Shown here piece after piece: positions 3,441-4,427 of a stretch of 5,048 nt of DNA (positions are counted from its first letter, which is position 1; every line of letters begins with the position of its first letter). The position numbers and the translations under genes are program-made. Below the pieces are notes generated by a model, which saw nothing but the letters and a program-made list of their open reading frames with translations, did no database searches and was not told the origin of the DNA. This DNA comes from a virus (lineage: Duplodnaviria; Heunggongvirae; Uroviricota; Caudoviricetes): positions 1-5,048 of IMG/VR virus record IMGVR_UViG_2663763286_000012. One strand, written 5' to 3'.

Positions 3441-3656
3441 TTAAGCGGCTTTGTGTTCCGGAGGGAACACGTCATCAAGACTGACTTTTGCGCCTAACTT
3501 GTTTAGGCATGCAACAAGAGCGCGGCATGTTTTAAGGTCTGGGAAGCGACGACCAGATTCCCAATGTCCGATAGCTCCCTGTGTGCATCCAACTGCCTTA
3601 GCAAGTGTTGTTTGAGAGATATTCAGTGACTCTCGATATTTTCGTAGGTTGCTCAT
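3441..3656 (-). CDS. cro: Cro-type HTH repressor (heteroimmune, not lambda Cro)
   Basis: 71-aa product MSNLRKYRESLNISQTTLAKAVGCTQGAIGHWESG..., with a helix-turn-helix that shares the TQGxIGHW recognition motif with the divergent cI. ATG at 3656 with GGAGGG upstream. The longer ORF to 3827 would run through the operator region and overlap the cI start, so it is trimmed. Confidence 0.8.
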   Translation of the reverse strand: MSNLRKYRESLNISQTTLAKAVGCTQGAIGHWESGRRFPDLKTCRALVACLNKLGAKVSLDDVFPPEHKAA

Positions 3657-3682
3657 ATGCCCTCCATAGTAACCATGAAACA

Positions 3683-3711
3683 ATAATACGATATGTACTT
3701 TTAGAATACAA
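3683..3711 (-). promoter_or_regulatory. PR-like promoter for cro (-35 TTGTAT, 17-bp spacer, -10 TATTAT) with overlapping operator site (OR1-like)
   Basis: On the minus strand: TTGTAT (plus 3706-3711), 17 bp, TATTAT (plus 3683-3688). The operator-like 19-mer AAAGTACATATCGTATTAT (plus 3683-3701, minus orientation) overlaps the spacer and -10 and matches a site at pL in 17 of 19 positions. Confidence 0.55.
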
Positions 3712-3741
3712 ACAAAAAATACATCTTGTGCATGGATGGTT

Positions 3742-3760
3742 TTAGTACAGAGCGTAATAA
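3742..3760. promoter_or_regulatory. Operator-like site adjacent to the cI start (OR3-like position)
   Basis: TTAGTACAGAGCGTAATAA matches TAAATACAAAGCGTTATAA at 4505-4523 in 15 of 19 positions, and is related to the PR and pL sites through the shared TACA...CGT core. Confidence 0.45.
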
Positions 3761-3773
3761 TAAGGATATGAAA

Positions 3774-4427
3774 ATGAAATGGTATGAACTGGCTAGATCC
3801 AGAATGAAAGAGCTCGGCATAACTCAAGAGAAGTTAGCTGAAGAGCTTGGTATGACGCAGGGTGGAATTGGTCACTGGTTGCGCGGATCTCGTCATCCAT
3901 CTCTTGACGAGATTGGTGTGGTGTTTAAATACCTTGGTATTGATAACGTCTCATTCAACCACGACGGTACATTTTCACCTGTTGGCGAATACTCATCTGC
4001 CCCCGTTAAAAAACAATATGAGTACCCTGTTTTTTCTCATGTTCAGGCCGGGATGTTCTCGCCTGAGCTTAGAACCTTTACCAAAGGTGATGCGGAGAGA
4101 TGGGTCAGCACAACCAAAAAAGCCAGTGATTGTGCGTTCTGGCTTGAAGTTGAAGGTAATTCCATGACCGCGCCAACAGGATCCAAGCCAAGCTTTCCTG
4201 ACGGGATGTTAATTCTCGTTGACCCTGAGCAGGCTGTTGAGCCAGGTGATTTCTGCATAGCCAGACTTGGTGGTGACGAGTTTACCTTCAAGAAACTGAT
4301 CAGGGATAGCGGTCAGGTGTTCCTACAGCCACTAAACCCGCAATATCCAATGATTCCATGCAATGATAGCTGTTCCGTAGTAGGGAAAGTTATCGCCAGC
4401 CAGTGGCCTGAAGAGACATTTAGTTAA
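3774..4427 (+). CDS. cI: CI-type prophage repressor: heterologous N-terminal HTH domain fused to a lambda-cI-like C-terminal S24 autopeptidase/dimerisation domain
   Basis: HTH motif [18 protein letters not shown]. The C-terminal half ([28 protein letters not shown] ... GNSMT ... FKKL ... [10 protein letters not shown]) is near-identical to lambda CI as I recall it, including the Ala-Gly cleavage site and the Ser/Lys catalytic pair. AAGGA at 3762-3766 sits 7 nt before the ATG at 3774; an in-frame ATG at 3768 is an alternative start. Confidence 0.9.

Follow-up and report, generated by a model that had tools for sequence, protein, structure and literature searches.

Exchange of immunity regions as modules among lambdoid phages is classical knowledge. 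In the switches of phages 434 and P22, Cro is a helix-turn-helix (HTH) paralogue of the repressor N-domain, and in the laboratory hybrids lambda imm434 and imm21 a heterologous immunity region lies between lambda-type early genes. Here we describe a stretch of 5,048 nucleotides from a virus of the Caudoviricetes (IMG/VR record IMGVR_UViG_2663763286_000012, positions 1 to 5,048; the whole stretch is called the window below). The window is the early region of a lambdoid prophage, in an orientation opposite to that of the lambda map. We are highly confident that positions 3441 to ∼4598 are a complete, conventional and widespread lambdoid immunity module that is heteroimmune to lambda and lies between lambda-type cII/PRE/nutR and nutL, and that the fusion joining the N- and C-terminal domains of its repressor cI is ancient. 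The sequences differ from those of 434, P22, imm434 and imm21, and the arrangement is a natural and widespread one in which the repressor carries a lambda-type C-domain.

The window was compared to lambda positions 34000-42000 using BLASTN, and the aligned blocks are listed with the other features in Table 1. No alignment was obtained across 3435-4016, which holds Cro, OR and the cI DNA-binding domain, or across 4486-4586, which holds OL/PL. The identity steps are sharp at both 3434/3435, which is 2 bp past nutR boxA and 6 bp from the cro stop codon, and 4016/4017. The latter falls at the first base of codon 82 of cI, the Tyr of YEYPVF, ten codons ahead of the cleavage site Ala92-Gly93. A first-pass annotation, made from the sequence alone, had described a mosaic in which lambda-like cII, PRE and nutR and a lambda-type cI C-domain with its Ala-Gly and Ser/Lys residues enclose foreign sequence, with junctions next to boxA and inside cI. 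Pairwise alignment confirms both junctions and both lambda-like parts (98.8% identity over 3032-3434; 93.8% nucleotide identity and 3 of 136 residues different in the C-domain), and moves the junction inside cI from about codon 90 to codon 82. Lambda has the same immunity architecture, and the cII, PRE, nutR, nutL and terminator of the window are of lambda type. Lambda differs in its operators, in the presence of rexA/rexB and in the distance between OR and OL, which is ∼2.3 kb in lambda and only ∼0.8 kb in the window because rexAB is absent. The window does not belong to the imm lambda specificity, which comprises a lambda-type cI N-domain, Cro and operators.

The cI protein consists of two domains with Pfam matches to HTH_3 (residues 9-56, E 8e-11) and Peptidase_S24 (residues 85-207, E 9e-29). 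Ala92-Gly93, Ser130 and Lys173 align with Ala111-Gly112, Ser149 and Lys192 of lambda. With this domain pair, the Ala-Gly site and the Ser/Lys dyad all present, cI is a LexA/S24-type CI repressor of the lambda cI family, and the solved structures that match it best are those of lambda repressor (PDB 3bdn, 8gmu and 2ho0; E 1e-83 to 2e-96). The C-domain is identical to that of lambda at 133 of 136 residues (∼98%), and its codons show 24 synonymous and 3 non-synonymous differences, a ratio in keeping with strong purifying selection on the shared C-domain, as functional constraint would produce. The nucleotide identity of the N-domain is 44% to lambda vs. 95% to the Stx1 phage. The database form of cI has 231 aa and starts at ATG 3732 (or 233 aa, from TTG 3726), a start that falls within OR2, before the point at which PRM transcription is likely to begin. 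ATG 3774 is preceded by a Shine-Dalgarno sequence (AAGGA, 3762-3766), and ATG 3768 is an alternative that fits a leaderless PRM transcript. The 231-aa form given by gene callers is probably over-extended by 12-14 residues.

Cro matches Pfam HTH_3 (E 4e-12), with further matches to HTH_31 and HTH_19. It does not belong to PF09048, the lambda Cro family, which lambda Cro matches at E 6e-35, and BLASTP of the window Cro against lambda Cro gave no alignment. It does align with the cI N-domain (35% identity, E 6e-13), the recognition helices being TQGAIGHW in Cro and TQGGIGHW in cI. The closest solved structure is PDB 28tn, an 82-aa “lambda repressor-like protein” (E 4.5e-17, residues 1-69 aligned); PDB matches to P22 C2 were weak. 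Judged by these comparisons, Cro is a 434/P22-type HTH_3 lytic repressor and a paralogue of the cI N-domain; the paralogy and the nearly identical recognition helices fit a competition of the two proteins for the same sites. Both Cro and the cI N-domain had been called unrelated to their lambda counterparts. This holds for Cro, which is of another family, but not for the cI N-domain, which shares the HTH_3 family with that of lambda and through which the BLASTP alignment continues at low identity.

A search for the pattern ARTAC-N5-GTAYT with at most two mismatches gave 11 matches, a number attained by none of 200 shuffles and above the 4.2 expected. Six of the 11 matches sit in the two operator clusters OR and OL. 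The proposed positions correspond to operators annotated in the Stx1 phage AP005153, and the half-sites are kept. An inverted-repeat search in OR and OL found none, as the operator half-sites are only 5 bp. Thus cI and cro diverge around a tripartite OR and a second tripartite operator lies at PL, which is the lambdoid immunity architecture. The candidate PRM agrees with the promoter annotated in AP005153, and OL/PL is 80% identical to the annotated OL/PL of that phage. The cI operon is closed by a terminator homologous to the one downstream of rexB in lambda, and the gap between the cI stop codon and this terminator (4428-4457) holds no gene. Further downstream, the boxA of nutL reads GGCTCTTA where lambda has CGCTCTTA, a substitution common to the relatives L002, L004 and L009.

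Two points weigh against a complete and conventional module. The assignments of PR and PRM are weak consensus matches (8/12; in the relaxed consensus scan PR gave 8/12 matches), and the insertion sequence (IS) that follows nutL may make the prophage defective, in which case the cassette would provide only repression and superinfection immunity. The IS starts at 4668, which is 16 bp past nutL boxB, between PL/nutL and N and upstream of the position of N in relatives. After GCAGAA the relatives continue with GGCTTTGG... into the N leader, whereas the window enters the IS at this point. The element belongs to the IS3 family and is IS629-like: its orfA (4722-5048) carries Pfam HTH_Tnp_1 and is accompanied by a −1 frameshift pseudoknot, and its matches are annotated as IS3 / IS629 family. 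The pseudoknot, of the ALIL type (5003-5048), is clipped by the window end and scores 49.2 bits in Rfam against a gathering score of 50. It was the sole Rfam match at E up to 0.1, a search that returned nothing for the nut sites or oop. No record spanning the junction between nutL and the IS was found in 5,426 complete E. coli genomes using megablast, and none of the GTDB representative genomes contained an exact match to it. This absence from both genome sets suggests that the insertion is a private and probably recent event.

The insertion is probably polar on N and reduces its expression. A crippled prophage, in which an intact cassette serves only as a repressor and superinfection-immunity locus because the IS blocks or reduces expression of N from PL, would account for the position of the element exactly where relatives enter the N leader, and it agrees with a recent, private junction next to cI and cro genes that are still full length. 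Yet the window ends inside the IS, so that N and the remaining prophage lie beyond view, and elements of the IS3 family can permit read-through or create outward promoters. We regard such a loss of function as possible and hold it only tentatively; the complete immunity module described above stays our preferred reading.

The same module is found in many other phages. Megablast against sequenced phages and direct alignment showed that 3032-4667 aligns with phage vB_EcoP-720R6 (ON470605) at 98.8% identity and with no gaps. The region is thus uniformly similar to one known phage, an outcome that the first-pass annotation itself had named as speaking against its proposal. Phages Louie, Dewey, vB_EcoP-683R2 and phi458 (OP434518) are 98.4-98.9% identical to the same interval, with 98.7% for phi458 over 3032-4421. 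Like 720R6, whose cI protein is identical to that of the window, they have the order cII-nutR-cro-OR-cI-terminator-OL/PL-nutL. They differ from the window in having an intact N leader in place of the IS. Their replication modules also differ (lambda-type O/P in phi458; O and a primase/helicase in 720R6), and phi458 has an extra 348-aa open reading frame (ORF) between cI and the terminator that the window does not have. An insertion inside the cI of phi458 had been suspected from its short-looking cI gene; the alignment shows an intact cI with the extra ORF after its stop codon.

The content of the interval between cI and the terminator varies elsewhere as well. It holds rexA/rexB in lambda (L001), the 348-aa ORF, of unassigned function, in phi458 (L004, 3919-4965), and several small ORFs in the Stx1 phage (L003, 3988-5457). 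The interval resembles a slot repeatedly occupied by accessory (“moron”) genes that lysogens express from PRM.

The block between the stop codons of cro and cI, exactly 3441-4427, is 93% identical to the Stx1-converting phage of E. coli O157:H7 Morioka V526 (AP005153), Stx2 phage II, phage 2851 and the PA-series Stx2a phages. These phages and phage 1717 have the same operator set and the same N/C fusion point as the window. AP005153 has an annotated cro, a cI described as “similar to phage lambda CI” and three putative operators in OR as well as three in OL. It differs from the window in its HK022/HK97-type cII and N flanks, in ∼1.5 kb of extra ORFs between cI and OL and in its OL/PL, for which the identity is only the 80% given above. 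With 96.3% amino acid identity in the N-domain and 93% nucleotide identity over cro-cI, the window appears to have the same immunity type as the Stx1 (Morioka)/Stx2-II/1717/2851 phages. Clade I of the Stx-phage CI proteins has been described as the closest to lambda CI, at 61% overall (PMC8951638). The CI of the window and of the Stx phages is probably this “clade I,” an assignment by consistency of pattern. In a literature search for papers that explicitly describe a lambda-type C-domain common to this immunity type, only that general paper on CI clades was returned. PMC10742460 concerns other Stx phages.

Among the 5,426 complete E. coli genomes, 776 (about one in seven) carry the cassette over at least 80% of the query, in up to three places per genome, and 1,409 blocks of an assembly collection list the identical 231-aa cI. 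The immunity type is thus widely distributed among P22-like phages, Stx-converting phages and the prophages of E. coli, and the idea of a new specificity placed on a lambda scaffold does not survive the presence of the same module in all of them. To delimit the module we aligned eight genomic contexts carrying the identical 231-aa cI to the window. Seven of them are ∼98% identical to the window only between 3441 and 4597-4599, and carry different modules for cII, N and replication beyond these limits; the eighth (L009) shows identity over 3032-4667, as in the window, and has lambda-type O, P and N. The common end points in the seven contexts show that the exchangeable unit comprises cro, OR, cI, the terminator and OL/PL. 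On these alignments the true module extends from 3441 to ∼4598, OL/PL included, and the span of 3441-4427 initially taken as the whole cassette leaves out its OL/PL half (4486-4598). By the same alignments, the recent joints in this genome are those at 3434-3441, at ∼4587-4599 and at ∼3032-3090, where lambda-type cII adjoins a replication module that L007 and L010 also carry.

The joint inside cI has a different history. The sharp steps at 3434/3435 and 4016/4017 between flanks that are 96-99% lambda-like are what could be expected of a recent chimera, in which lambda or a near-identical phage had recombined with a heteroimmune donor by a crossover inside cI, giving a new repressor in this lineage. 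The C-domain does not behave accordingly, since it is 93.8% identical to lambda as compared to 98.8% for cII-nutR. Furthermore, the C-domain alleles of the window, lambda and the Stx1 phage form a three-way star with mutual identities of 91.5-93.2%. Alleles that are equidistant next to lambda-type flanks of 96-99% identity indicate that the C-domain is old and resident in the cassette and is not a recent contribution from lambda. The same N/C fusion is also present in Stx phages without lambda-type flanks and in the seven other genome contexts. We therefore consider a recent chimera very unlikely. When the C-domain was used as the query in a protein search and the N-domains attached to the matches were clustered, lambda-type C-domains proved to be linked to three large families of N-domains: that of lambda itself, the window type (MKWYELA...) and a third type (MKTMHEIIGERIK...) with a C-domain identity of up to 89%. 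The N-domain of the window recurs with at least 95% identity in 63 phage records, phage 1717 included, and its next relatives are from Salmonella phages at ∼54%. From this distribution the fusion at codon 82 is the product of old domain shuffling, common to every carrier examined, and did not arise in this genome. That the window is an assembly or sequencing chimera of lambda cloning-vector and prophage sequence has next to no probability: lambda-derived vectors are found as contaminants in some assemblies, and several blocks share 96-100% identity with lambda, but phages and genomes that were sequenced independently show the identical arrangement and the lambda-like blocks carry substitutions common to those relatives, such as the boxA variant GGCTCTTA.

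By homology to lambda, the ancient, conventional module is likely to work as an SOS-inducible bistable switch with six 17-bp operators. Dimers of cI would bind these operators (core ARTAC-N5-GTAYT) via the HTH_3 N-domain, and the lambda-type C-domain would supply dimerisation and pairwise cooperative contacts and probably also OL-OR looping, here across ∼0.8 kb. Upon RecA*-stimulated self-cleavage at Ala92-Gly93 by Ser130/Lys173 the prophage would be induced, and Cro, by binding the same operators, would shut off PRM. Synthesis of cI would be established by the lambda-type cII acting on the co-inherited lambda-type PRE. A PRM start near ATG 3768 would yield a cI mRNA with no leader or almost none, as in lambda. 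The strain that harbours phi458 was flagged as one in which nalidixic acid induces the prophage, and plaque-forming phi458 was released spontaneously (PMC9701743). Given its 98.7% match to the window, this suggests that the switch works in a close relative.

Table 1. Features of the window and blocks aligned to lambda.
Feature	Position	Strand	Details	Lambda position and identity
Lambda ren-ninB gap	72-147			40642-40567, 100%
Small conserved phage ORF, phrog_2239	144-413	-	downstream of helicase	
DnaB-like helicase	410-1786	-		
O-like initiator	1783-2730	-		
ORF, function unassigned, phrog_2519	2733-3008	-	between cII and O-like gene	
cII	3028-3321	-	97 aa; Pfam Phage_CII, E 1e-48; protein identical to lambda cII	
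Block with cII, PRE boxes, nutR boxB and boxA	3032-3434			38649-38247, 98.8% (403 bp, 5 mismatches)
oop terminator	3052-3079	+	terminator scan; inside lambda block	
PRE cII-binding repeats	3299-3312	+	TTGC-N6-TTGC; from lambda alignment	
nutR, lambda-type	3401-3432	-	boxB 3401-3415, boxA 3425-3432	lambda-identical over this stretch
cro	3441-3656	-	71 aa; Pfam HTH_3	
Candidate PR	3683-3711	-	TTGTAT, 17-bp spacer, TATTAT; -10 overlaps OR1, -35 between OR1 and OR2	
OR, three predicted 17-bp operators	3684-3759		cores OR1 3685-3699, OR2 3718-3732, OR3 3744-3758	
Candidate PRM	3733-3761	+	TGGATG, 17-bp spacer, AATAAT; -10 overlaps OR3	
cI	3774-4427	+	HTH_3 and Peptidase_S24	
cI N-terminal DNA-binding domain and linker	3774-4016	+	codons 1-81; Pfam HTH_3; heteroimmune to lambda	
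cI cleavage-site region and S24 C-domain, lambda-type	4017-4427	+	Ala92-Gly93 4047-4052, Ser130 4161-4163, Lys173 4290-4292	
Block with cI cleavage-site region and C-domain	4017-4421			37637-37233, 93.8% (405 bp, E 4e-179)
Block with terminator following rexB in lambda	4450-4485			35834-35799, 88.9%
Intrinsic terminator	4458-4487	+	terminator scan	
OL/PL, with three predicted operators in OL	4506-4581	+	cores 4507-4521, 4540-4554, 4565-4579	
PL	4553-4581	+	TTGACC, 17-bp spacer, TACTAT; overlaps OL1 and OL2	
PL leader and nutL, lambda-type	4587-4667	+	PL start (+1) to nutL; boxA 4621-4628, boxB 4637-4651	35583-35503, 96.3%
nutL	4621-4651	+		
IS3-family element, left end	4668-5048	+		

The remaining genes of the window lie on the cII side of the module. 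The oop terminator had been read as lambda together with cII. This is correct for the terminator itself, which lies in the lambda block, but not for the oop promoter and 5′ end, which lie outside it: lambda identity is patchy from 3043 and ends at 3032. The oop promoter region falls in non-lambda sequence, and a TATAAT is seen at 3004-3009. The ORFs assigned to phrog_2519 and phrog_2239 gave no Pfam match. Within the O-like gene a 12-bp repeat (TCATGTGCGGCT) occurs in two arrays at 2192-2303, which encode a His/Ala-rich protein repeat and presumably are the iterons of ori; two copies of GGGGGGTA at 2128-2143 adjoin the arrays. The 76 bp at 72-147, which are identical to the intergenic region of lambda ren and ninB (40567-40642), include a GC-rich hairpin, and the genes on either side are not those of lambda. 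This segment is a conserved boundary between modules. In two related genomes further features were seen: an IS21-family element (rve and IstB) lies between cII and cro in L012 (751-2552), and the DnaB-like helicase of L010 (1-453), with 595 aa, has a weak LAGLIDADG match that could represent an intein.

Taking all of this into account, the cassette, its fusion point and its lambda-type flanks are already known, as all of them are present in deposited and annotated phage genomes. A C-domain shared between heteroimmune repressors might permit co-resident prophages to form mixed dimers or tetramers and thereby cross-talk in their induction thresholds. We find this improbable; if true, it would mean that the switches of co-resident prophages are coupled or destabilised and that nominally independent immunity types are linked. 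Past annotation the finding itself matters little, being textbook lambdoid mosaicism with exchange at the cro stop codon beside boxA, at PL +1 and in the cI linker. In practical terms, the immunity type of this prophage can now be named as that of the Stx1 Morioka, Stx2-II, 1717 and 2851 phages, 720R6 and phi458.

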